This document shows, in pieces, positions 52,455-62,007 of a stretch of 64,000 nt of DNA. Origin of the DNA: Giardia intestinalis. Its lineage: Eukaryota. The notes below the pieces were generated by a model. It was not told the origin of the DNA, did no database searches, and saw nothing but the letters and a program-made list of their open reading frames with translations. The stretch lies in NCBI GenBank assembly GCA_000002435.2, contig CM018793.1; one strand, given 5' to 3'. The first letter of the stretch is position 1, and every line of letters starts with the position of its first letter. The position numbers and the translations under genes were made by a program.

Positions 52455-54494
52455 TTAACCCAATCTATTTTCAATTAGCGCCCAGAGCGTCTTCATCTGT
52501 ACATGCACAGCCGCAGAATCTATACTGGATAGCTGAATAGAGAAAATATTATCGCCTTTGTAGTAGGGCGGAGCTGCTTCTTCTCCTTTCATATGAAAGT
52601 ACACCCCCAGAGATTTAGACAGGACATACGCCAACTTATCTTCGTTGGGCTTGTTGATGCGAACACGATTAAATTGAGAAGATTGCTTTTCCAAAACCAC
52701 GCAAAGAACGGCACCGCTCTCCCACTCCTGCTCAGTAACTTTTCCCACGTCGGATGTAAAGACCAAAGTTCGGGCTTTGTACGACAAAACGATATCGTCC
52801 GCAGCGAAGGACAACTTGTCCTTGCTGATGCTGAAATTCGTTGCCCCCGCTTCCTTGTCCTTGGCCTTCTGATGAACGTAGCTGTATTGGGGACGGCGGT
52901 AGTCCTTAACTTTCTCAAGACGGTTCAACGGTTTAAACTCTCCTCCTACGAATAGATAAAGTATGTTCCGTTCATTGACGACGCAGCTGCTGTAGGCAGA
53001 CGGTATTAAGATGTATCGTGGGCTGCTCTTTGATATTCGCTGTTGGAGGCTTTGGTTTACCTCTGCCCTTCGCTCGGAAGGTTCCACTTGAGAGTCGGGA
53101 GATCTGTGATAAAGACCTGATAGCACTTGCCTGAGCGTACTATCCGCGACAATCGGAATGTTATTTCGGATGAATGGAGCGACAAACTTTGCATAGTGAA
53201 GCGAGTTGGCAGAAATAAAGGTCACTGGCCGTTGTATTTTCGCTGCAACAACCCTGATGGTGTCGGCGGGATCCTTACGCGCGGTGATAGTGCAGTACTT
53301 ACTAAATGTACGTAGGACTTTGGACAAGTACGCTGTCGGAACAAGAGACGCGTAGAGAGAGGAGAGATACACGGTGCTACAGAACAGCGATGGCTTGTAT
53401 GTGTTCATACTTCGTGCGATGTCGTGAATAGTGTTCAGGATCCGTGACCCGCGCGCCGAAAAAAAGTCTTTACTGACAACAAATGTTGAGCGATGTATAA
53501 AGCTGGTTATCTGAGCCTTTTCAACCTCTAAAGTCTTAGGAAGAACCTTCACATTGGATGTGACTCTGGACGAAAGCACAGAAAGACGCCCAGAGTAAAT
53601 CAATTTCTGGTCTGGGCCGTCTGTTTCTGTGGTTAGTTGTGGGTTACTGGCAACTCGCTGGTCGAGCTCGCTGTACTTTTTGATTGAAGAGATTGCTTGG
53701 TCAAGAGAGAAGCCAGAGGGGCCACTGGCATGCTCTTCGGAGGTCTTTGGAGACATAGCTGTGGGAGCAGCTGACCTGTCTGCTAAAAAGGGAGTCAGAA
53801 AGTCCAAGTGTTTGGAAGCATGCTCGATCGCCGAGTCCACCTCAGTGAGAAAGCTGGCTCCGTGTGAGTAGTACGAAAGATATTCTTGGTTGTCTTTCTT
53901 ATCGTCCGCCTCCCGCGATGCAAGGAATTCGTGCAGTGCGCTGTAGTAGGAGCTGACGTCGCGCCGCCTGTCGTATTCGTGGACATCGAAAAACGCACCT
54001 TTGTTAGAGTCCTGAGTCAGTTTTATTATGAGAGGAATGCCTCCGCTTTTGAGTAGATCGGGGACTGCGCTGATGTTGACGTCAGTGATGAGACGCACGC
54101 TGGAGGGGTGGATAATGTCTGAAGAGTCTGCATCAGAATAGATGGCGGCATAGAGCCCCAGTATGCTCTTCCGGTCAAACACAGTTGTGTGGGCTTCGCT
54201 GGCGAGCGCCGCGTACTTCGGCCGGATGCGTCGAACGAAGAGGTTCTCGGCGACAACCGGCTCTCCGTTGGCAAGGATGAGCTGCTGCTGGGTTGCGACC
54301 ATGACGCAGAGGTCTGCGACCGTCATGGGAACGCCCTGGAGCGTGATCTCGTCGTGGGCGGGGAGGAGGGAGCCACCGGCGTAGACGTAGCGCTGCTGGG
54401 AGGCCTCGTCGTCGACAAGGCACCAGGCGCAGGCCGGGTCCCGGGTCTGCTGGAGGCCGGTGAGCGCCGCGCGGGCTGCAGCGAGCAGGGCCAT
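52455..54494 (-). CDS. Hypothetical protein of 679 aa, with its 5' end (about 350 nt) in the GC-rich island
   Basis: ATG start at 54494 (MALLAAARAALTGLQQ). The N-terminus is Ala-rich and the rest has ordinary composition. No family recognised. Confidence 0.6.
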   Translation of the reverse strand: MALLAAARAALTGLQQTRDPACAWCLVDDEASQQRYVYAGGSLLPAHDEITLQGVPMTVADLCVMVATQQQLILANGEPVVAENLFVRRIRPKYAALASEAHTTVFDRKSILGLYAAIYSDADSSDIIHPSSVRLITDVNISAVPDLLKSGGIPLIIKLTQDSNKGAFFDVHEYDRRRDVSSYYSALHEFLASREADDKKDNQEYLSYYSHGASFLTEVDSAIEHASKHLDFLTPFLADRSAAPTAMSPKTSEEHASGPSGFSLDQAISSIKKYSELDQRVASNPQLTTETDGPDQKLIYSGRLSVLSSRVTSNVKVLPKTLEVEKAQITSFIHRSTFVVSKDFFSARGSRILNTIHDIARSMNTYKPSLFCSTVYLSSLYASLVPTAYLSKVLRTFSKYCTITARKDPADTIRVVAAKIQRPVTFISANSLHYAKFVAPFIRNNIPIVADSTLRQVLSGLYHRSPDSQVEPSERRAEVNQSLQQRISKSSPRYILIPSAYSSCVVNERNILYLFVGGEFKPLNRLEKVKDYRRPQYSYVHQKAKDKEAGATNFSISKDKLSFAADDIVLSYKARTLVFTSDVGKVTEQEWESGAVLCVVLEKQSSQFNRVRINKPNEDKLAYVLSKSLGVYFHMKGEEAAPPYYKGDNIFSIQLSSIDSAAVHVQMKTLWALIENRLG

Positions 54495-54635: not shown

Positions 54636-55100
54636 TCACGCGTACGTCGCAAGGAGCGCGGCGGCCTGGTCGGACTTGTAGCGGAACGTCGGGGGGAGGC
54701 GCCTCGCCTGGCGGTAGTAGCGCGCGAGGCGGTGGATCCTCGACTCGACCAGGATCAGGCGGAACTTCGAGTCCTTGTCGCGGCGGCTGCGCTCGAGGTG
54801 CTTGCGGATGGCGACCGCCTTCTTGATCATGCAGTAGAGGTCCTCGGGGATTTCGGGCGCAAGGCCCTTCGCTTTCAGGATGCGGACGATCTTCGACCCC
54901 GTGACGTTCTTGACCTGGCCGATCGCAAACTGGTCGCGGAGGATAAGCCCGATCCTCGAGGGGGGCGTGCCCTTCTTGGCGAGCTTGCAGATCTGCTCGC
55001 AGACGTCCTCCGGCGTGTACTTGTTCCAGGGCGCAGGAGCGCGAGTGTATGGTATGGCAGAGCGGGATATACCCTTACCCTTCGAGTGCATGCGGCCCAT
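54636..55100 (-). CDS. RPS13: 40S ribosomal protein S13 (uS15)
   Basis: [18 protein letters not shown]...[40 protein letters not shown] aligns over its full length with eukaryotic S13. Codon usage is strongly GC3-biased. The TGA stop is fused to the AGTAAAC poly(A) signal. Confidence 0.93.
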
Positions 55101-55186
55101 GGCTTTGTCACGTGCCCGCTAAAATTGCTATGCAAAGTGAATTTAAAGTCGCGGAGTTTTTTTACAGGCAGGCAGCCCGCGGCCCT
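55101..55186. promoter_or_regulatory. Divergent promoter spacer between RPS13 and MCTS1, containing AAAATTGCTATGCAAAG and TTTAAAGTC AT-rich elements
   Basis: An 86-bp head-to-head spacer between two highly GC3-biased genes. Confidence 0.3.
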
Positions 55187-55762
55187 ATGGAGCGATTTGC
55201 GCGCGAGTGGTGCACGAACCTCTCCCTCCTCAAGGCGTCCCAGGCGAAGAAGTGCGTGGCCGGCCTCAAGGAGCAATTCCCCGGCGCAGAAGCCCTCATC
55301 GACGAGCTCTTTCCGCCCAAGGGAGAGGTCTCCCTGGTCAAGTGCAAGAACTACATACAGCTCCTAGTCAGCACGCTCCCCGCTGGCAGCGCCCACAACA
55401 CAGGGACCAAGCCCGTGAAGCGGATCGTATTCTGGAACATCCGCGACGGCCCGTGGATCCCGACCCTGCGTCTCCTGCAACGATACCCGACCCTGCTCCC
55501 CGTGCTACTAACCGACGCGTCGTGCCCCAAGTTCATACTCCAGGGCGCTCAGATGATGGCCCCTGGCATCCACCAGATGGACCAGGATCTCCCTCGGGGT
55601 GCGATTGTCTCTGTGAGCATCCAGGGTGCCCCGCCGTTCTACATCGGCCGTCTCACTCAGGCCGGTAAGGAGATAATGGCCGAGGGTCGCCACGAGCAGG
55701 CCGTGGAGACTCTCAACATAATTGGCGATGGGTTCTGGGAGTACGGCGACGACTATAAGTAA
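55187..55762 (+). CDS. MCTS1/Tma20-like translation re-initiation factor with a PUA domain
   Basis: The track ORF start at 55049 is ATG, and the in-frame ATGs at 55130 and 55187 are chosen by alignment. The 55187 start (MERFAREW...) gives 191 aa, comparable to human MCTS1 at 181 aa. It aligns with human MCTS1 at EQFPG, PTLRLLQRYPTLLP, KFILQGAQMMAPGI, AEGRHEQAVETL and DGFWEY. An alternative start is 55130. Confidence 0.8.
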   Translation: MERFAREWCTNLSLLKASQAKKCVAGLKEQFPGAEALIDELFPPKGEVSLVKCKNYIQLLVSTLPAGSAHNTGTKPVKRIVFWNIRDGPWIPTLRLLQRYPTLLPVLLTDASCPKFILQGAQMMAPGIHQMDQDLPRGAIVSVSIQGAPPFYIGRLTQAGKEIMAEGRHEQAVETLNIIGDGFWEYGDDYK

Positions 55763-55850
55763 ATCGGAGTTGCCGTGCGTGCGCCGCCCGTCTGTGCGAG
55801 AGCTGCGCTGATAATAATTTTGAAACGTTTTCCTGTTTTCCGCAAAACAA

Positions 55851-56345
55851 ATGTATTCGGGTCCTTACAATAGTGCACCTGCGGGTAATCCCTACGGTGG
55901 CCCTCCGCAGATGTCCTCTGGTGGTCCCTACGGCGCAGGCGCCCCACAGGCGGGCCCCGGCCCCTATGGTTCGTCCATGCCTTCGGCCAACGCAGGCCCT
56001 TACGGTGCCCCCGCGGGGCCCTATGGAGCCCAAGCCCAGGGAGCTTCTGGCCCCTATGGCGCGTCGCAGGCTGCTCCACAGCCAGCATCGGGCCCTTATG
56101 GGTCAACTGCCCCTGGATACGGTGCGTCAGCCCAGCCTTATGGAGCCGCTGCTTCCACCGCAGGCGTCGGCCCCTACGGCGCAGGCGCTCCATCGATGGG
56201 TGGTAGCGGGGTCGGTGGTCCTGGGCCGTACGCAAACCCTGGTGGCCCTTACGGCTCATCGGGCCAGCCACCTGCAGGGCTGTACGGCTCTGGCGCCCAG
56301 CCAGGTATGATGGGAGGTCCTTACGGCGCACAAGGGCAGATGGGC
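55851..56345 (+). repeat. Coding GPYG low-complexity repeat, N-terminal arm of the FYVE protein (GC-rich)
   Basis: More than 15 copies of PYG/GPYG are visible in the translation. This region drives the local GC richness. Confidence 0.6.
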
Positions 56346-58823
56346 ATGGGTGGTCCCGCTCCAGGGTACGAGCAGACTCGGATCCCGGGAATGGACGTAG
56401 GCGGGTATAGCCAGGGTCCTGTTGGGGGCCCGCAGACCATAGAACCGATCGAAGAGGTCAAGAGAGTGCGCTTCCACATGACGAACGGCTACGAGTTTTC
56501 TCTCTCCATCGCAATTCCTCACAAGACCCTTGTCCCTCGCACAGAGTGGATTCAGGACAAGGACGTGAACAACTGCCAGGGCTGCGACACGGCATTCACA
56601 CTTCTTAACCGCCGCCACCACTGCCGTAGGTGCGGACGCATATTTTGCAATGCTTGTTGCATCAAGCCAATTGATATCCTGAGCGATACTGGAACAGACA
56701 GGCTTTGCAAACTCTGCAAGGCTGTCATGCTTGTGGTGGACGGGCCTCCCAATCCCCTTGCTTACGACGTAAAGCAGTTTCTCGAGGACCAGAGCTTATC
56801 TGTGTATCTCACGTCGCAAGACCACTTAATGGCCGCCGAATACATCCGCCTTATCCAGAACAACCTCAGGAACAACGACTCTCGCACATTTCTGATGCAA
56901 TACAGGCCGCAGCTCATCTATAGAGCAGTCGAGCTTTTGGACCAGGCTGTTCGTTCAATCGTTGATCATGCCTCTCGGGTTCACTACATCACGCTCCCGC
57001 AGTCCCAGGGCGGATATGCCATCCCGAACGGTCCCCAAATGATGAATCTCCGAGATGCATCAACCATCATTTCACACTCACTCGGCCTCTTGATCAACCT
57101 GACGAGCACATCGAACAAGCAATTTGCTAGCGCCTTGGCCTACATCCGCGAGGTAGACACAATTGGCATAATAGTCTCGGTCCTTACTCCAGAGGTGGAC
57201 CTGGTCAAGCAGGAGTTGGCGATTTGGGCTCTCCGCAACATTACCGCAGATCCAGGGTGCATTCCTCGCATCATGGAGCATCGCAACTTTGTTCCTGGAG
57301 TGGCGCGCCTCCTCGGCACCGCTGTCCGTGCAACGGGAGAGTTCATTACAAGCCTGATTGGAAACATTGCCCTTGCTGCTCCTGACTATGTTCCGCGTCT
57401 CCTGCCGTCCAACCCTATACCGAATATGGTCGATACTCATGAGATCCTCAAGTTTATCATGCATAATATAGACATCACGGCGCATGTCACACAGTGCATG
57501 GCCATGCGCCTGATGGGTCTCTTTGCCAAGAACGCGCACTCTAAGGATATCCTCATCAACTACAAGGTTCACGAGTCCATTGTGGCTGCTTTAGCTAAGC
57601 GTGCTGTTGAGTTCTTTACGACTGCGGGCAATTCCGCGGCCATGGCCCTCGACTCGGCTCTTCGCTACGTCAGATCAGAGACGATGGCAAACCCCATGAA
57701 GGACGTTAACGAGGCCTACGTCATGTCTGGCGGATTCTTCGCCTTAGGGTGCTTTGTGGAGCTTGACGAGGAGGCTGTGACAAAGGCGATCATTGACGGA
57801 ATCTTTGGTTCTCGCGAGCTGACTCTTTACCTCATGAAGTCCATCTCCCGAGAGACGGCGTACACCTGTGTTGAGAGTTCCTACTTCCTTCGTGTTCTTC
57901 TTGCAGGTAGCACTAAGGAGGTGTCTGACCGAATCATCGGAGACGAACAGTACAAGAGTGATTTCATACGCAACGTTGTCATTGTCCTCGACCGCCCCTT
58001 CATTATGGAAACAGTCACCACCAATTGCCAGTCCATGCTGTCTGCGCTGCAGAACAGCGACAATAGCTCTTTAGCTACCGAAATAAATACTCGGCTCAAG
58101 GGAGGCGCCGGTTCGCAGGGCCAGGGTGGAGTTAACATTGCGGAGGCCTTGTCTTCGAACTATGCCGGCGCAGAGATGAACGAGACAGATCTCAAGAGGC
58201 AGGCTACAGGCCCCTATGGAGTCCCCAGTGGTATGAACATTTCTGGAATCCCCAACCCATATTCAATGCCCCAGCAACAGTGCCCTGTGATCCCGCAACA
58301 AGGGTACCAGGGACAACCGTCAGCAAGCCTCTATTCTGCAGGCCAGCCTCCTGTCTCTGCTGTTGGGGGCCAAGGTTTTGGGCAGTCTGGCGGGATGTAT
58401 GGCCAGGGAGTTCCGCAGCCGGCTTCGGGGGCACCTGGGCCGTACGGCTCTTCCGTTGCCTCCAATCTGTACGGAGCTGTTTCCTCGTCTAATCCGTATG
58501 CTGCGGGTAACCCTTCTGCGGGCTCTAACATGGGACCGTATGGTGCGCCCCAACAGGGCTACTCTGGAGCCGTTTCGGCACCAGCGCCTATGTCAGGCTC
58601 TTATGGGGCTGGAGTTCCTGTCTCGACATATGGATCCACTCCAGCGCCCGCCGGGCCTGGGGCTTCTGGGCCCTATGGAGCACCACAGACTTCCAACCCC
58701 TATGGTGCCCCTGCACCCGCCTCGAATCCTTATGGCGCCGCAACGGCACCAAATCCTTATGGGGCTCCTAGTGGATCTAATCCGTATAAGACGTCTAGTT
58801 TTCACAGTGAGGAGCTGGCGTGA
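55851..58823 (+). CDS. FYVE zinc-finger protein (predicted to bind PI3P) with a central armadillo/HEAT-like region and long N- and C-terminal GPYG-repeat low-complexity arms
   Basis: The FYVE signatures are WIQDKD, RRHHCRRCGRIFCNACC and RLCKLC. The N-terminal arm of about 165 aa and the C-terminal arm of about 200 aa are [AGSP]-rich with reiterated GPYG(A/S) motifs. The central 550 aa are helical repeats. Confidence 0.85.
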   Translation: MYSGPYNSAPAGNPYGGPPQMSSGGPYGAGAPQAGPGPYGSSMPSANAGPYGAPAGPYGAQAQGASGPYGASQAAPQPASGPYGSTAPGYGASAQPYGAAASTAGVGPYGAGAPSMGGSGVGGPGPYANPGGPYGSSGQPPAGLYGSGAQPGMMGGPYGAQGQMGMGGPAPGYEQTRIPGMDVGGYSQGPVGGPQTIEPIEEVKRVRFHMTNGYEFSLSIAIPHKTLVPRTEWIQDKDVNNCQGCDTAFTLLNRRHHCRRCGRIFCNACCIKPIDILSDTGTDRLCKLCKAVMLVVDGPPNPLAYDVKQFLEDQSLSVYLTSQDHLMAAEYIRLIQNNLRNNDSRTFLMQYRPQLIYRAVELLDQAVRSIVDHASRVHYITLPQSQGGYAIPNGPQMMNLRDASTIISHSLGLLINLTSTSNKQFASALAYIREVDTIGIIVSVLTPEVDLVKQELAIWALRNITADPGCIPRIMEHRNFVPGVARLLGTAVRATGEFITSLIGNIALAAPDYVPRLLPSNPIPNMVDTHEILKFIMHNIDITAHVTQCMAMRLMGLFAKNAHSKDILINYKVHESIVAALAKRAVEFFTTAGNSAAMALDSALRYVRSETMANPMKDVNEAYVMSGGFFALGCFVELDEEAVTKAIIDGIFGSRELTLYLMKSISRETAYTCVESSYFLRVLLAGSTKEVSDRIIGDEQYKSDFIRNVVIVLDRPFIMETVTTNCQSMLSALQNSDNSSLATEINTRLKGGAGSQGQGGVNIAEALSSNYAGAEMNETDLKRQATGPYGVPSGMNISGIPNPYSMPQQQCPVIPQQGYQGQPSASLYSAGQPPVSAVGGQGFGQSGGMYGQGVPQPASGAPGPYGSSVASNLYGAVSSSNPYAAGNPSAGSNMGPYGAPQQGYSGAVSAPAPMSGSYGAGVPVSTYGSTPAPAGPGASGPYGAPQTSNPYGAPAPASNPYGAATAPNPYGAPSGSNPYKTSSFHSEELA
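58218..58805 (+). repeat. Coding GPYG/NPYG low-complexity repeat, C-terminal arm of the FYVE protein
   Basis: Reiterated GPYGA, NPYGA and SGPYG motifs in the translation. Confidence 0.6.
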
Positions 58824-58860: not shown

Positions 58861-60459
58861 ATGGGTCGAGACTTCCATGACTATTTGGACGAGGACAAGC
58901 CCGCTGCAGAGTCTTCGATAGGCTCGGGGACCGATAAGACTCTTAACTCAACCATCATGAAGCTTACGACAGCAAATGTGAACGTCCTCTTGTGGTCCAC
59001 AGCGCTCCCCTACATATGCGGTTTTCTTCTAGAAGGGCTTGCCTTCATCGGTGACTACAATTTAGTCATCTACTACCCCGGCTTTGTGGGCCTCTTTGGA
59101 ATGGCCCTTGCATATCCTGTGGAGATATTAATGTGCAAGAACATTACACTGGGGTATGGCTTAGCAACAGCAAGCGCCATCCAGAAGGCTCTAGCAAAGA
59201 ATAAGGCGTCGCTAGCCAGCTCCTACCTTGCCCACTACATAATGCTCAGCCTCCTCTGGTCTATTCTGTGCACAATTTGCTTAACACCGTCGGCGGTCCC
59301 ATTGCTGAAATTCATGGATAATCACCAAGGAAATGAACGCGGCATGGCGTACTCTCGTATCGTCTTTTCGACACAGAACTTTGCCAACATATTTAGTAAC
59401 TCCATTAGTCAAGTCCTTGCTGTTGAAAACCGAGTAGCGCTCAACTTCTTCCGCCATCTCGGCTCTTCCTTTCTATTCATCCTCTTCGATTATATAATAT
59501 ACTTTATATCAAGCTTCTATTCCTCCAAGATTCCCGAGCTTTGCCAATCGTCTGCCATTGCATATACCTTGGCTCATACCGTCATAAGCGTGTGGATCCT
59601 CTGCGTTCTTTTTAAGAGAACCGCGTTCGATATTCCAATAAAAACCTCTCTTGATCTAAAGCTCAAGCGATTCTGGCCACTGAAGCCAAAGATCATCAAG
59701 ACCATTATAGTCGGGAGCCTTCCCCCAATCTTGTTCAACTCTACAATTCCAGCGACTATTCTAGTGTGCAATATCCTCGTTAGTCGATATTATACTTCCT
59801 TAGAGACGATTAACGCATCTAGGCTGAAATTCATTACCTACCTCCGGTATAATAATCTATTTATGTTTATCAACAACGGATTTAACCAAGCATTTATCAC
59901 CACTTGCGGCTTCAACTTGGGCCTCAGGAACTATGGCCGTGTACGCCAGCTGATAGTTGCCTCTGCGCTTTGGACCCTTGTGCTTTCTGCAATCCTAGGC
60001 ATACTGATGTTTATCTTTTACAAGAGCGTTGCCCAGCTCTTCTATCCTATTCTTGCGTATCACCAGGCAGAGCTGGAGTGGAAGGATACACAAAGACAGT
60101 ATGAGGAGACCTACGAGGCAGTGGCCCTTGCCTCCCTAGGGCCTATATGGATGGGCCTCTTCATGACTGTGAGCTCTATTGCACAGCTTGAAGACAAGTT
60201 TCTTGTGTTTGTGCTTTTGCAGACATCGCGCATTGTTGTACCGATTATCTTTGCTATATCGGCAGGCCTCTTGATCCAGGACAACGCGAAGCTATTAACG
60301 GCTCTTCCAATCGGTGACGGGATTGCTGGCATGTGCTGCCTTACATTTTTGTTCTACTACTTGCAAAAGTATAAGCACCTAAGCCTTATTGAGCAATCAC
60401 GAAAGGAGAATGAGGCATTAGAGGCACAAATAGCAAATCTGGACGCTCTGAACGACTGA
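58861..60459 (+). CDS. Polytopic transporter with about 12 TM segments, MATE/MOP-superfamily-like efflux protein
   Basis: ATG start. There are 12 hydrophobic helices in a 6+6 arrangement. Gly-rich helix motifs (VGLFGMALAYPVEI, GYGLATASAIQKALA) are reminiscent of MATE. The assignment is tentative. Confidence 0.5.
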   Translation: MGRDFHDYLDEDKPAAESSIGSGTDKTLNSTIMKLTTANVNVLLWSTALPYICGFLLEGLAFIGDYNLVIYYPGFVGLFGMALAYPVEILMCKNITLGYGLATASAIQKALAKNKASLASSYLAHYIMLSLLWSILCTICLTPSAVPLLKFMDNHQGNERGMAYSRIVFSTQNFANIFSNSISQVLAVENRVALNFFRHLGSSFLFILFDYIIYFISSFYSSKIPELCQSSAIAYTLAHTVISVWILCVLFKRTAFDIPIKTSLDLKLKRFWPLKPKIIKTIIVGSLPPILFNSTIPATILVCNILVSRYYTSLETINASRLKFITYLRYNNLFMFINNGFNQAFITTCGFNLGLRNYGRVRQLIVASALWTLVLSAILGILMFIFYKSVAQLFYPILAYHQAELEWKDTQRQYEETYEAVALASLGPIWMGLFMTVSSIAQLEDKFLVFVLLQTSRIVVPIIFAISAGLLIQDNAKLLTALPIGDGIAGMCCLTFLFYYLQKYKHLSLIEQSRKENEALEAQIANLDALND

Positions 60460-60525: not shown

Positions 60526-62007
60526 TTACAATAGAGGAAGAAGCTCATTCATGCCCATTTTCTCAGCTGCAGCGCGTGGAGATATTCTATCGACCTTTAT
60601 GTCCTTTTCATGCGAAGCCATGAGCCTGGCAAACTCCAAATTTCTGTTTTCTATCGCATAGAGCAAAGCAGTGAATCCAGAGAGTGACCTCATTCTCTTC
60701 TCGTCATCGAGGAGGATCCTTCCTGCTTCCACGTTGTTAGTAACGGCTGCAATCATCAGGGCTGTCATGCCGTCCAAGCGTTGCTTTCGCTTATGGCTAT
60801 CAATGTGGCGCTTCACGCCGTCTATGTCGTTGTCTTTTACTGCGTCTATGAGAGGCGTGGTACTTTTGAGGATTATATCGTTGAGATCGCCGGCCGAAAG
60901 GGGCTTTAACGCAGCATTGGACACGTCTAGGCTTACAGGATCAATCTTGACGTCCTGAATATCCAGAGGAACAGGTACTGCTTTTGCACAATTATCTTGA
61001 CTGTCTCCTACGCGGCCCTCAGCAGCATCGCCTAATTTTGAAAAGTCGTGCAAGCCAAAAAGGTTGATGGTGATCGCGTTGGCAGCAATGGATGGGCTGT
61101 CCACAATCCTGATGTGACCATATCTCCCCTCTTCGGCCCACTTCTTTGTTATGCTCTGAACCTCCGGGGACTTGATGATGTCGGATGCAGAGGGTCGATC
61201 GTCAGGGTGGTACTTTATCATGGCTGAAATGATCCTGACAAACTCAGTGCTGTATCCAGGTATTGACAGCTGCGACGACGACACTTTCCTCGCCCTCTCG
61301 AGACGATCTCTGTCTGTGGGGCCTGTGATGAGATACTTTTGCGCAGCCAATTCGTACATGGTGCACCCAAGGGACCAAATGTCGAAGGATGTGGTGTATG
61401 TTCTAGACTCAAAAGATTCTGGGGGCATGTATATGGGCGTCCCGACAATCGTCATTGCCATATGCTCCTGAGCATTCTCATAAAGGCGGCAGACGCCAAA
61501 GTCTGCAAGCTTCACCTGCATGTCATCCCCGATGAGCAGATTTGCAGGCTTGATATCGCGGTGAATGACGGCCTTCCCCGTCGCATTAAATGGAGAGTGA
61601 CAGTAACTCAGCGCCAAGAGCACTTGGATCATGATTGCCCAAAGAAGATCCTCGTCGATTTTCTTTCCATGCTTCTTATGATCTGTCAGAAATTTGAGCA
61701 TGTCGCCGTTCTTGTAATAGTCCATGATGATTGAGTAGCTGTTTTCATCCACATCATCGAACACTTCATAGTACTTCACAATATTCGGGTGGTCGAGCTT
61801 CATCGTAATATCGATTTCGTTGGTGACTAGCTCCTTTGCTTTCGAGCTGAGACAGGAGTACATGATCTTCTTACAGCAGAGAAGCTTATCCTTTTGCGCA
61901 GATGTCACGGCATACACCTTTCCATAGCTGCCTGTCCCAACAACGCGATCTATGGTGTATTTGTCGGTGACTGACCCCTTTTGAATAAACACCGGCTCCT
62001 CTGTCAT
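60526..62007 (-). CDS. NEK-family Ser/Thr protein kinase with C-terminal ankyrin repeats
   Basis: The kinase motifs are GTGSYGKVY, LCCKKI, HRDIKPANLLI, LADFG and GTPIYMPPE. The C-terminal ANK repeats are GMTALMIAAVTNNVEAGRILL and GFTALLYAIENRNLEFARLM. ATG start at 62007. Confidence 0.9.
   Translation of the reverse strand: MTEEPVFIQKGSVTDKYTIDRVVGTGSYGKVYAVTSAQKDKLLCCKKIMYSCLSSKAKELVTNEIDITMKLDHPNIVKYYEVFDDVDENSYSIIMDYYKNGDMLKFLTDHKKHGKKIDEDLLWAIMIQVLLALSYCHSPFNATGKAVIHRDIKPANLLIGDDMQVKLADFGVCRLYENAQEHMAMTIVGTPIYMPPESFESRTYTTSFDIWSLGCTMYELAAQKYLITGPTDRDRLERARKVSSSQLSIPGYSTEFVRIISAMIKYHPDDRPSASDIIKSPEVQSITKKWAEEGRYGHIRIVDSPSIAANAITINLFGLHDFSKLGDAAEGRVGDSQDNCAKAVPVPLDIQDVKIDPVSLDVSNAALKPLSAGDLNDIILKSTTPLIDAVKDNDIDGVKRHIDSHKRKQRLDGMTALMIAAVTNNVEAGRILLDDEKRMRSLSGFTALLYAIENRNLEFARLMASHEKDIKVDRISPRAAAEKMGMNELLPLL

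Follow-up and report, generated by a model that had tools for sequence, protein, structure and literature searches.

What do two long, tyrosine-studded arms contribute to a protein that otherwise combines a FYVE zinc finger with an armadillo (ARM) solenoid? The question is raised by a single open reading frame of 990 aa at 55851..58823 (+) of the window, i.e., the entire 64,000-nt stretch of Giardia DNA analysed. The encoded protein is 100% identical over 990 aa to the NCBI entry 'FYVE zinc finger domain-containing protein [Giardia duodenalis]', and its length and domain layout agree with those of GlFYVE in PMC7058353. On these matches, we identify the gene as GlFYVE (GL50803_16653; UniProt A8BDZ8) of Giardia duodenalis assemblage A/Giardia lamblia WB. 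The locus is a rediscovery of a published gene, and the statement of a preliminary description of this DNA that no characterised counterpart was known is incorrect. The same 990-aa protein is found, identical, on 68 contigs, and the gene order around the GlFYVE orthologue is the same in assemblage B. FYVE lipid binding, localisation to the interface of peripheral vacuoles and plasma membrane (PV-PM), the clathrin/dynamin interactome and truncation phenotypes have been published (PMC4954726, PMC7058353, PMC6115752), as has the layout 'disordered region + FYVE + ARM repeats' (PMC7058353). Because this work is published, the lipid overlay and PV localisation proposed as checks have already been carried out. 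Absent from the GlFYVE publications are the C-terminal arm, the PYG motif with its spacing and conservation, and the wider Fornicata family; residues 301-990 are labelled 'ARM repeats' there (constructs in PMC7058353). The protein is thus not new, and the arms are the concrete, testable element that this analysis adds: both are predicted to be disordered, are conserved, evolve under selection and are confined to the Giardia lineage. The overall architecture described before (two arms, FYVE finger and ARM core) is correct and comprises the following features:

55851..56429, + strand: N-terminal disordered arm, aa 1-193 (composition, motif counts, pLDDT, Tyr spacing, dN/dS)
56430..56543, + strand: conserved pre-FYVE element, aa 194-231 (EPIEEVKRVRFHMTNGYEFSLSIAIPHKTLVPR), common to the Fornicata homologues
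56544..56723, + strand: FYVE zinc finger, aa 232-291 (Pfam PF01363, PDB matches, landmark residues)
56757..58106, + strand: predicted armadillo-repeat solenoid, aa ~303-752, with ~26 helices in roughly 8-9 repeats
58107..58208, + strand: linker with conserved short peptide, aa 753-786 (GGVNIAEALSSNYAGAEMNETDLK) (ortholog alignment, model)
58209..58796, + strand: C-terminal disordered arm, aa 787-982 (composition, motif counts, pLDDT, Tyr spacing, dN/dS)
58797..58823, + strand: conserved C-terminal tail SFHSEELA and stop codon (ortholog alignment)

Every landmark by which the FYVE finger had been recognised (WxxD, RRHHCRxCG, RxC) is present. Pfam PF01363 scores 64.9 bits (E=7.4e-18) over aa 232-291, where the curated cut-off is 27.8 bits, and PDB sequence matches of the finger are the FYVE domains of EEA1, ZFYVE16 and RUFY1 at E ~1e-11 (EEA1 FYVE 1joc, E=3e-11). 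Eight zinc-coordinating cysteines form four CxxC pairs (C242/C245, C258/C261, C266/C269 and C286/C289). The PI3P-binding signature is complete (W233-x-x-D236, R254-R-H-H-C258-R259-x-C261-G262 and R284-L-C286, where Leu replaces the Val of the canonical RVC), and L251-L252 form the hydrophobic turret. All of these landmarks (8 Cys, WxxD, RRHHCR, R-L-C) are invariant in five orthologues, and the proposed check on the zinc ligands thereby came out in favour of the FYVE assignment. FYVE is the sole significant domain in the Pfam search of GlFYVE; VHS and UIM gave no match. The adjoining pre-FYVE element is near-invariant across the five orthologues and recognisable in the Dysnectes, Spironucleus, Hexamita and Aduncisulcus proteins; its fold is uncertain, as model 1 predicts a beta-hairpin and model 2 a helix, each with low confidence. 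For the finger, Sinha 2011 reported a PI3P-preferring lipid overlay and targeting to yeast endosomes, according to the summary given in PMC6115752; this conflicts with PMC7058353, where PIP binding of GlFYVE was not measurable.

The AlphaFold2 model of aa 195-765 (pLDDT 80.8, pTM 0.79) predicts three-helix repeats that form a right-handed superhelix, i.e., an armadillo solenoid, in agreement with the ARM-like core noticed before. Pfam Arm (PF00514) finds no match in GlFYVE at E<=1; it matches 6 of the 15 members of the FYVE-ARM family (best 1.1e-7), and the family profile reaches importin-alpha at E=0.006. Identity to the ARM proteins importin-alpha, Vac8 and beta-catenin is only 8-18%, and GlFYVE has neither the IBB domain of importin-alpha nor the acylation motif of Vac8. 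The core carries a conserved H3-type Asn ladder (N416, W459xxxN463, N505, N561), in which N416 and N463, candidate groove positions, are invariant in the alignment of 15 Fornicata sequences. In the linker that follows, the five orthologues share A766, S769, N770, Y771, G773 and A774 without exception, and model 1 places a short helix at 763-768.

The N arm (aa 1-193) is composed of 28% G, 17% P, 16% A, 10% S and 9% Y and contains 18 Tyr, 9 exact GPYG, 10 [GN]PYG and 11 PYG. The C arm, counted over aa 787-990, has 18% G, 17% P, 15% S, 13% A and 8% Y, with 17 Tyr, 4 GPYG, 3 NPYG, 7 PYG and 6 NPY. With 3 charged residues each, both arms are classed as uncharged with zero net charge. The arm motif is [GN]-P-Y-G-[AS]: Pro precedes Tyr in 22/35 cases, and YG[AS] occurs 21 times and YGAP five times across both arms. 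The description of the arms as reiterated GPYG stands for the N arm, and the C arm is better described by [GN]PYG or xYG. The proposed likeness to the [G/S]Y[G/S] domains of FUS is imprecise, as strict [GS]Y[GS] surrounds just 4 of the 35 Tyr, and that to FG-type cohesive domains fails on the Phe content, as the N arm has 0 Phe and the C arm just 2. 'Prion-like' is also too loose a label: Q+N amount to 8.8% (N arm) and 12.3% (C arm) and Pro to ~17%, and because they are Q/N-poor and Pro-rich, the arms are not classically prion-like.

When each arm's own composition was shuffled (n=2000), PYG occurred on average 0.89 (N) and 0.50 (C) times with maxima of 5 and 4; the observed 11 and 7 copies are therefore far above chance. 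Tyr residues follow each other at ~11 residues (mean 10.8, minimum 4-5) with coefficients of variation of 0.32 (N arm) and 0.30 (C arm) vs 0.88 for random placement, and 0 of 5000 trials were as even. Both arms lack secondary structure in model 1 (pLDDT <35). Uniform aromatic spacing, an uncharged flexible spacer and a conserved pattern together correspond to a sticker-spacer sequence, which denotes a functional class and not a family of homologues. A regex scan of the whole protein found no clathrin box, DLL/DLF, W-box, DP[FW], NPF or FxDxF, and no PTAP (P[ST]AP), YPxL or PPxY; it returned 7 NPY, which is not known as a ligand. Across orthologues, the C-terminal tail follows the pattern [FY]-x-x-[EQ]-[EDQ]-L-[ADE]. 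17% Pro and the lack of Arg, with which the Tyr-Arg contacts that drive condensation in the FUS family are lost, speak against a cohesive character of the arms.

The arm tyrosines are conserved. Between assemblages A and B, 35/35 arm Tyr are kept at 82-83% identity of the arms (P ~0.001), and a relative with 64% identity retains 30/35 (P ~3e-5); 13-17 of the 17 Tyr positions of the C arm are conserved in orthologues, and Tyr density is 8-9% in the arms of every orthologue. The dN/dS vs assemblage B is 0.10 for the N arm, 0.076 for the C arm and 0.018 for the ARM core. The arms evolve ~5x faster than the core and, with dN/dS ~0.1, are under purifying selection. Both arms are found in 5/5 Giardia-lineage orthologues, and the proposed check in syntenic orthologues located them there in independent assemblies. 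A 37%-identical metagenomic relative has 19 + 21 PYG after extension of its truncated gene call and two further copies in an insert inside the ARM core. Around the Tyr sites of the most divergent orthologue, P(-1) occurs at 19/20 + 22/25 and G(+1) at 20/20 + 23/25, and A(+2)/P(+3) dominate.

The FYVE-ARM core is a Fornicata-wide family. Homologues were detected in Spironucleus salmonicida (KAH0577869/EST43996), Hexamita inflata (CAL6100858 and CAL5975490), Dysnectes brevis and Aduncisulcus paluster (GKT19073) with profile E-values of 1e-31 to 1e-12; the searches found none outside Fornicata. These proteins share with GlFYVE the pre-FYVE element, the FYVE finger and the ARM solenoid with its LxNL/WxxxN ladder. 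Outside the Giardia lineage, however, they comprise 470-860 aa, and none contains the PYG motif; Aduncisulcus alone has a Tyr-containing tail, built on another repeat, QGYSQPPPS. The arms are thus best described as added in the Giardia lineage to a FYVE-ARM protein of earlier origin within Fornicata, whose core may be used for dating the origin of the static coat.

Giardia endocytosis is an evolutionary oddity, with static clathrin arrays that do not bud, no coated vesicles and no uncoating factors, and GlFYVE is among the few reciprocal, high-stringency partners of clathrin and dynamin. It sits at the PV-PM interface with clathrin and shows reciprocal co-IP with clathrin heavy chain and dynamin-related protein (PMC4954726, PMC7058353, PMC6115752), and the suggested role as a scaffold at peripheral vacuoles was therefore right; it is also present in ARF1 interactomes. 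Two constructs, 1-300 and 301-990, have been published (PMC7058353). Fragment 301-990 (ARM + C arm, without FYVE) suffices for PV targeting and overlaps clathrin, while fragment 1-300 (N arm + FYVE) no longer associates with PVs and gives rise to ectopic bodies that draw clathrin away; the authors consider that these bodies may be aggregates or resemble vesicles, and do not interpret them as condensates (PMC7058353). That GlFYVE is phosphoinositide-anchored, as was supposed, is doubtful in light of both fragments and of one of two studies finding no measurable PIP binding. In our reading of PMC7058353, each published half has one PYG arm and each associates with clathrin, which makes the arms a candidate explanation for the truncation phenotypes.

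GlFYVE is known as an adaptor of the static clathrin/dynamin assemblies where the plasma membrane meets the peripheral vacuoles (PVs/PECs). We favour, at about even confidence, an account in which its arms act as multivalent tyrosine tethers. The ARM solenoid would be the docking module, with an extended peptide of some PV or clathrin-assembly partner probably bound in its importin-alpha-like Asn/Trp groove. The FYVE finger would provide an auxiliary, avidity-type PI3P contact and not the main anchor. The PYG arms would supply tyrosine 'stickers' whose numerous weak interactions, among the arms and/or with components of the clathrin assembly, cross-link the long-lived coat and hold it on the membrane. 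Their role would resemble that of the disordered arms of AP180/epsin, the prion-like domains of yeast endocytic proteins and the IDR of FREE1. Multivalent self-assembly of GlFYVE is plausible, and the ectopic clathrin-containing 1-300 bodies are compatible with it. A further-reaching version, which we regard as speculative and unlikely, is that the PYG arms, as an invention of the Giardia lineage, converted a FYVE-ARM adaptor of ancestral Fornicata type into a cross-linker that forms gels or condensates, so that a cohesive, resilin-like tyrosine network, not a canonical adaptor-motif code, would make the clathrin assemblies static and long-lived at the PV-PM interface, convergent with FREE1 and yeast endocytic condensates.

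Several other explanations of the arms have to be weighed. One is that they are low-complexity sequence without function that drifts under GC-rich codon usage, or else an artefact of assembly or expansion; this would fit the N-arm DNA, at 0.66 the most GC-rich stretch of the region, the GC-rich codons of Gly, Pro and Ala, and the fast evolution of the arms relative to the core. It is essentially refuted by the constant density and conserved positions of Tyr, an amino acid with TAY codons, by dN/dS ~0.1, by the identical protein on 68 contigs and by arms at syntenic loci of independent assemblies. No DNA-level tandem repeat was found in the arms, and they are therefore not a recent expansion or assembly artefact; in the assemblage B cluster, the 878-aa variants result from a start called at Met116 instead and not from a loss of repeats. 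That the arms are classical prion-like domains, Q/N-rich and amyloid-prone as in FUS or yeast prions, is very improbable: they are Tyr-rich, uncharged, Gly/Ser-containing and of low complexity, and FREE1, also an IDR + FYVE protein, has a prion-like domain interchangeable with FUS LC, but the low Q+N, the high Pro, the four [GS]Y[GS] sites and the lack of predicted beta structure argue against it. Entropic or elastic arms are more conceivable though still improbable; as springs of the resilin/elastin kind or as steric 'bristles', they would determine reach, exclude volume or curve the narrow PM-PV invaginations, with Tyr, Pro and Gly retained only for tuning compaction and solubility. Resilin-like polypeptides are disordered and elastic with Tyr-dependent UCST/LCST phase behaviour, and their Gly/Pro/Ser/Ala/Tyr repeats, which bear little or no charge, contain a YGAP core and recur every 11-15 residues, resemble the arms in composition, in YG[AS] and YGAP content and in Tyr spacing. 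The Drosophila Rec1 resilin unit is GGRPSDSYGAPGGGN and the uncharged mosquito (Anopheles An16) unit is GAPAQTPSSQY(GAP), an 11-residue repeat; Tyr-anchored 11-mers of GlFYVE match 3-5/11 residues of the An16 unit, mostly in the YGAP core. Full predicted disorder and high Pro/Gly, which disfavours amyloid, also agree with elastic arms. Yet a pure spacer requires neither position-conserved Tyr nor a dN/dS of 0.1, the clathrin-positive 1-300 bodies indicate adhesion and not repulsion, and the likeness to resilins, which unlike GlFYVE are extracellular cuticle proteins with dityrosine cross-links, is a convergent low-complexity resemblance only.

A tentative alternative, which we consider somewhat unlikely, treats the arms as arrays of a short linear motif, ~[GN]-P-Y-G-[AS]-P, each copy of which is read stoichiometrically by a folded domain without homotypic cohesion or phase separation, in the manner of the clathrin-box, DLL or DPW motifs on the arms of AP180/epsin; candidate readers are the N-terminal propeller of clathrin heavy chain, dynamin-related protein and the protein's own ARM groove. 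Conservation around Tyr is position-specific well past composition, PYG persists at 37% core identity including the copies in the ARM-core insert, and one arm and clathrin association coincide in each published half. The near-invariant P-Y-G core varies less than one would expect of a sequence made purely of stickers and spacers (the IDRs of FREE1 are not conserved), which favours a specific motif reader, and the importin-alpha-like WxxxN/Asn ladder is of a type that typically binds extended peptides. However, known endocytic motifs are absent from GlFYVE in the regex scan, so a reader domain would need to be new, and the Asn ladder is conserved also in Fornicata homologues without PYG arms, implying an ancestral ligand of the groove other than PYG. 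Even spacing of aromatics and a net charge of zero are likewise hallmarks of sticker-spacer domains.

For multivalent tyrosine tethers, the nearest counterparts extend long disordered arms from a head that binds lipid or is folded, as do AP180/CALM, epsin, yeast Sla1/Ent1/Yap180x, Ede1/Eps15 and plant AtEH1; in yeast and plant endocytic proteins, such disordered regions condense at endocytic sites. The arms of AP180/epsin carry many weak motifs that bind clathrin-coat components (clathrin box, DLL, DPW). Motifs of this type, NPF included, are missing in GlFYVE, and the heads are ANTH, ENTH or EH, not FYVE-ARM. Plant FREE1/FYVE1 likewise places a disordered Tyr-containing region beside a PI3P-type FYVE finger at the endosomal membrane; its IDR-driven condensation is essential, and the condensate wets or bends membrane. 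Homology to GlFYVE is nevertheless confined to the FYVE finger, and FREE1 has a coiled coil where GlFYVE has ARM. It has a single N-terminal IDR and a land-plant distribution, compared with two conserved arms in GlFYVE, and it uses PTAP for VPS23 with ESCRT-I as partner, whereas GlFYVE has no P[ST]AP and associates with clathrin and dynamin. Hrs/Vps27 (ESCRT-0) is a FYVE protein with a Pro/Gln-rich C-terminal region that recruits flat, non-budding clathrin to endosomes. A functional link between GlFYVE and Vps27 is suggested in PMC6115752; of the domain set that defines Hrs/Vps27 (VHS + FYVE + UIM + clathrin box), GlFYVE shares FYVE alone and has an ARM solenoid instead of VHS.

The open reading frame at 55851-58823 (+) is single and uninterrupted, and its 990-aa product is GlFYVE (GL50803_16653 / A8BDZ8). 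From end to end it shows 100% identity with the NCBI entry 'FYVE zinc finger domain-containing protein [Giardia duodenalis]', the cluster of which is found on 68 contigs. The preliminary description was aware of no characterised counterpart. GlFYVE is in fact published, with localisation, partners and lipid-binding tests reported (PMC4954726, PMC6115752, PMC7058353), and several of the checks proposed in that description have already been performed in the published work. Since gene and architecture are in print as well, the finding is already known. What appears to be undescribed is that there is a second arm, that the arms carry a regularly spaced PYG motif and evolve under selection, that they were gained within the Giardia lineage, and that FYVE-ARM proteins form a Fornicata family; these points amount to a useful, testable footnote, not to a discovery.

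Zumthor et al. (2016; PMC4954726) placed Gl16653 in the core interactome of the clathrin heavy chain and proposed that it serves, through lipid binding, as a link for the static clathrin assemblies found at the interface of peripheral vacuoles (PV) and plasma membrane (PM). According to PMC6115752, the isolated FYVE domain showed a preference for PI3P in overlays and targeted endosomes in yeast in the work of Sinha et al. (2011). Cernikova et al. (2020; PMC7058353) located GlFYVE-HA at the PV-PM interface by STED and recovered it with clathrin heavy chain (GlCHC) and dynamin-related protein (GlDRP) in reciprocal high-stringency co-IP; in vitro PIP binding of GlFYVE could not be measured. GlFYVE is also present in ARF1-family interactomes (2025 preprint). 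In the literature the name itself is confined to the 2020 paper and the preprint of that paper, and a literature search that paired Giardia with low complexity, clathrin and phase separation returned nothing relevant.

The FYVE finger is canonical, as had been claimed. It is the one significant Pfam domain (PF01363, aa 232-291, E=7.4e-18, 64.9 bits against a cut-off of 27.8), and sequence comparison with solved structures gave other FYVE fingers as the best matches, those of EEA1, ZFYVE16 and RUFY1 (E ~1e-11). All landmarks were found: W233-x-x-D236, R254-R-H-H-C-R259-x-C-G262, R284-L-C286, the four CxxC pairs (C242/245, C258/261, C266/269, C286/289) and a hydrophobic turret formed by L251-L252. 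Full-length AlphaFold2 modelling from five sequences was poor overall (pLDDT 48.6), with a badly modelled FYVE finger and both arms without secondary structure at pLDDT <35. We therefore use in its place a model of aa 195-765 only, based on a 15-sequence alignment that includes remote homologues from an exhaustive HMMER search with the core profile. This core model (pLDDT 80.8, pTM 0.79) contains ~26 helices beyond the FYVE finger, and Foldseek against the PDB returned designed armadillo proteins, importin-alpha, Vac8 and ARMC8 at probability 1.0, in agreement with the ARM-like core described from sequence. The GlFYVE sequence itself does not reach the Pfam Arm threshold; 6 of the 15 family members match Arm, and the family profile matches importin-alpha (E=0.006), its centre 'ELAIWALRNIT' resembling importin-alpha's 'EAAWALTNIA'. 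Asn416, Asn463, Asn505 and Asn561 form a putative H3-type ladder, with N416 and N463 invariant in 15/15 sequences, and from these features we infer that the solenoid has a predicted peptide-binding groove.

The core is flanked by an N arm (aa 1-193: Gly 28%, Pro 17%, Ala 16%, Ser 10%, Tyr 9%) and a C arm (aa 787-990: Gly 18%, Pro 17%, Ser 15%, Ala 13%, Tyr 8%), each with 3 charged residues. Together they contain 13 GPYG (9 + 4), 17 [GN]PYG and 18 PYG motifs, compared with means of 0.89 and 0.50 PYG per arm (N and C; maximum 5 and 4) in 2000 composition-preserving shuffles. The reiterated GPYG motif proposed earlier was thus confirmed in both arms, but the C arm owes as much to NPYG and xYG as to GPYG. 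Arm tyrosines lie in a position-specific pattern, a-[GN]-P-Y-G-[AS]-[PGS]-a-q, at a mean spacing of 10.8 residues and a CV of 0.30-0.32 versus 0.88 for chance; none of 5000 random placements was as even. Tandem Repeats Finder detected no DNA tandem repeat in the gene, which indicates old motifs that are degenerate in their coding DNA and argues against recent expansion. Outside the GlFYVE frame, a search of all six frames across the 64-kb window gave just 6 scattered PYG tripeptides; no second PYG-arm gene lies nearby.

Taken strictly, the initial comparison with FUS-like domains did not hold, as there are only 4 [GS]Y[GS] triplets, Q+N is 9-12%, Pro is 17% and Arg is essentially absent; nor did that with FG-type domains, Phe being almost absent. 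Scans of the arms for clathrin box, DLL, W-box, DP[FW], NPF and FxDxF, and for PTAP, YPxL, PPxY and PY-NLS, were negative. The 7 NPY motifs could also be read as 'NPF-like' in the EH-domain sense, a reading that was set aside. The arms fit the general grammar of an aromatic sticker in a flexible uncharged spacer. Resilin-like polypeptides, including the uncharged mosquito An16 repeat, share with them a YGAP core and a period of ~11 residues, and An16 exhibits Tyr-dependent UCST behaviour; the likeness is convergence, not homology.

Both arms are present in 5/5 Giardia-lineage orthologues. Between assemblages A and B, identity is 82-83% in the arms and 93% in the core, 35/35 arm tyrosines are conserved (P ~0.001), and Nei-Gojobori dN/dS is 0.10 for the N arm, 0.076 for the C arm and 0.018 for ARM. 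A 64%-identical relative retains 30/35 arm tyrosines (P ~3e-5). The most divergent orthologue (4519-8358 on contig Ga0136175_10007431 of JGI metagenome 3300010163; core identity 37%, contig GC 63%) was called short at its N-terminus; extended to the upstream 'MYSAQQASPYG...', it comprises 1279 aa, and its N and C arms hold 19 and 21 PYG, respectively, with 2 more in an insert inside the ARM core. It also carries a Lys/Glu/Pro/Ala-rich acidic insert of ~180 aa ahead of the C arm. Several members of the assemblage B cluster are 878 aa long versus 992-993 aa and start at the internal N-arm Met116. These are alternative starts, a gene-calling difference and not a shorter arm, and assembly artefact or repeat-number polymorphism was discarded. 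Because the arms are conserved, their tyrosines kept and evenly spaced, dN/dS low and the pattern position-specific, the sequence comparisons lead us to exclude artefact and neutral drift.

The distribution of the family derives solely from the exhaustive HMMER search, in which a five-sequence core profile was compared with 1.84 billion representative proteins and gave only 18 matches. The named matches, Spironucleus salmonicida, Hexamita inflata, Dysnectes brevis and Aduncisulcus paluster, are all Fornicata. Each combines FYVE finger and ARM solenoid with a conserved pre-FYVE element, and PYG is absent from all of them. From this distribution, the FYVE-ARM core is judged to be a Fornicata family that acquired its PYG arms within the Giardia lineage. 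The free-living Aduncisulcus (GKT19073) has a C-terminal Tyr/Pro/Gln/Ser-rich stretch of ~260 aa with the repeat QGYSQPPPS, unlike PYG. Since this tail is independent and its repeat different, Tyr-containing low-complexity tails may have been added to the FYVE-ARM adaptor more than once.

Published fragments bear on how the protein is anchored. PMC7058353 divides it into 'disordered region + FYVE (1-300)' and 'ARM repeats (301-990)': fragment 301-990 is retained at PVs and overlaps clathrin, fragment 1-300 is lost from PVs and makes extra clathrin-containing bodies, and all constructs lower dextran uptake. The phosphoinositide-anchored scaffold suggested at first is doubtful, as ARM plus C arm reaches PVs without FYVE and N arm plus FYVE does not suffice; on this evidence the finger can contribute at most an auxiliary anchor. 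Each half bears one PYG arm and each associates with clathrin, the N-terminal half moving it into ectopic bodies. In the best reading, to which we give an even chance, the ARM solenoid would dock GlFYVE, and the two arms would act as multivalent, weakly adhesive tethers that cross-link a static clathrin/dynamin coat via arm-arm and/or arm-coat-component contacts. Precedents for such arms are FREE1, which combines an IDR with FYVE and for which condensation on endosomes is essential, the yeast endocytic prion-like domains, Ede1 and plant AtEH1.

The main rival treats [GN]PYG[AS]P as a specific motif read by a folded domain. The P-Y-G core is conserved unusually tightly, which favours this reading, and we regard it as possible, with appreciably less confidence than cross-linking by adhesive arms. 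That the arms serve as an entropic or elastic spacer is doubtful, an adhesive phenotype weighing against it, and arms that are prion-like in the classical sense or the product of drift or artefact are unlikely.

Three short conserved elements lie outside the named domains:
56430-56543 (+), pre-FYVE element of ~35 aa (aa 194-231), conserved, immediately before the FYVE finger
58137-58208 (+), conserved peptide 'NIAEALSSNYAGAEMNETDLK' (aa 763-786), between ARM solenoid and C arm
58797-58820 (+), extreme C-terminus SFHSEELA (aa 983-990), pattern [FY]xx[EQ][EDQ]L[ADE]

The pre-FYVE element, EPIEEVKRVRFHMTNGYEFSLSIAIPHKTLVPR in Giardia, follows the consensus F-x4-G-x-D-x-SLSI-x2-P-x3-LV in all Fornicata FYVE-ARM proteins, has no match in Pfam and is folded differently in the two AlphaFold models (hairpin versus helix). 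The other two are short conserved peptides amid otherwise disordered sequence and are candidate docking motifs.

The locus reads Cdc73, uS15, Pre-PUA/PUA, FYVE, MatE-like transporter and NEK/ankyrin kinase:
52455-54494 (-), Cdc73/parafibromin homologue
54636-55100 (-), uS15/RPS13, divergent from the Pre-PUA/PUA ORF
55049-55762 (+), Pre-PUA/PUA (MCT-1-like) ORF, 237 aa as listed
55753-56331 (-), overlapping ORF, by-product of the GC-rich low-complexity stretch
55873-56310 (+), overlapping ORF, by-product of the same stretch (GC 0.60-0.66)
58861-60459 (+), 532-aa multi-pass membrane protein, weak MatE match (E=4e-9)
60526-62007 (-), protein kinase with C-terminal ankyrin repeats

Gene order is unchanged on the assemblage B contig with the 88%-identical orthologue, and the arms are retained in syntenic orthologues. 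In a 50%-identical relative, the gene just upstream is again the PUA gene. The first 52 nt of the Pre-PUA/PUA ORF overlap the 5' end of uS15/RPS13. Because of this overlap, and because orthologues at two other Giardia-lineage loci are called as 191 aa, the true start probably lies at Met47 (nt 55187), so that ~87 nt of intergenic DNA separate the two genes. The MatE-like gene begins 37 nt past the GlFYVE stop codon and is the same neighbour in assemblage B. A kinase with C-terminal ankyrin repeats is typical of Giardia NEK kinases, which are recurrent in published PV/clathrin interactomes.
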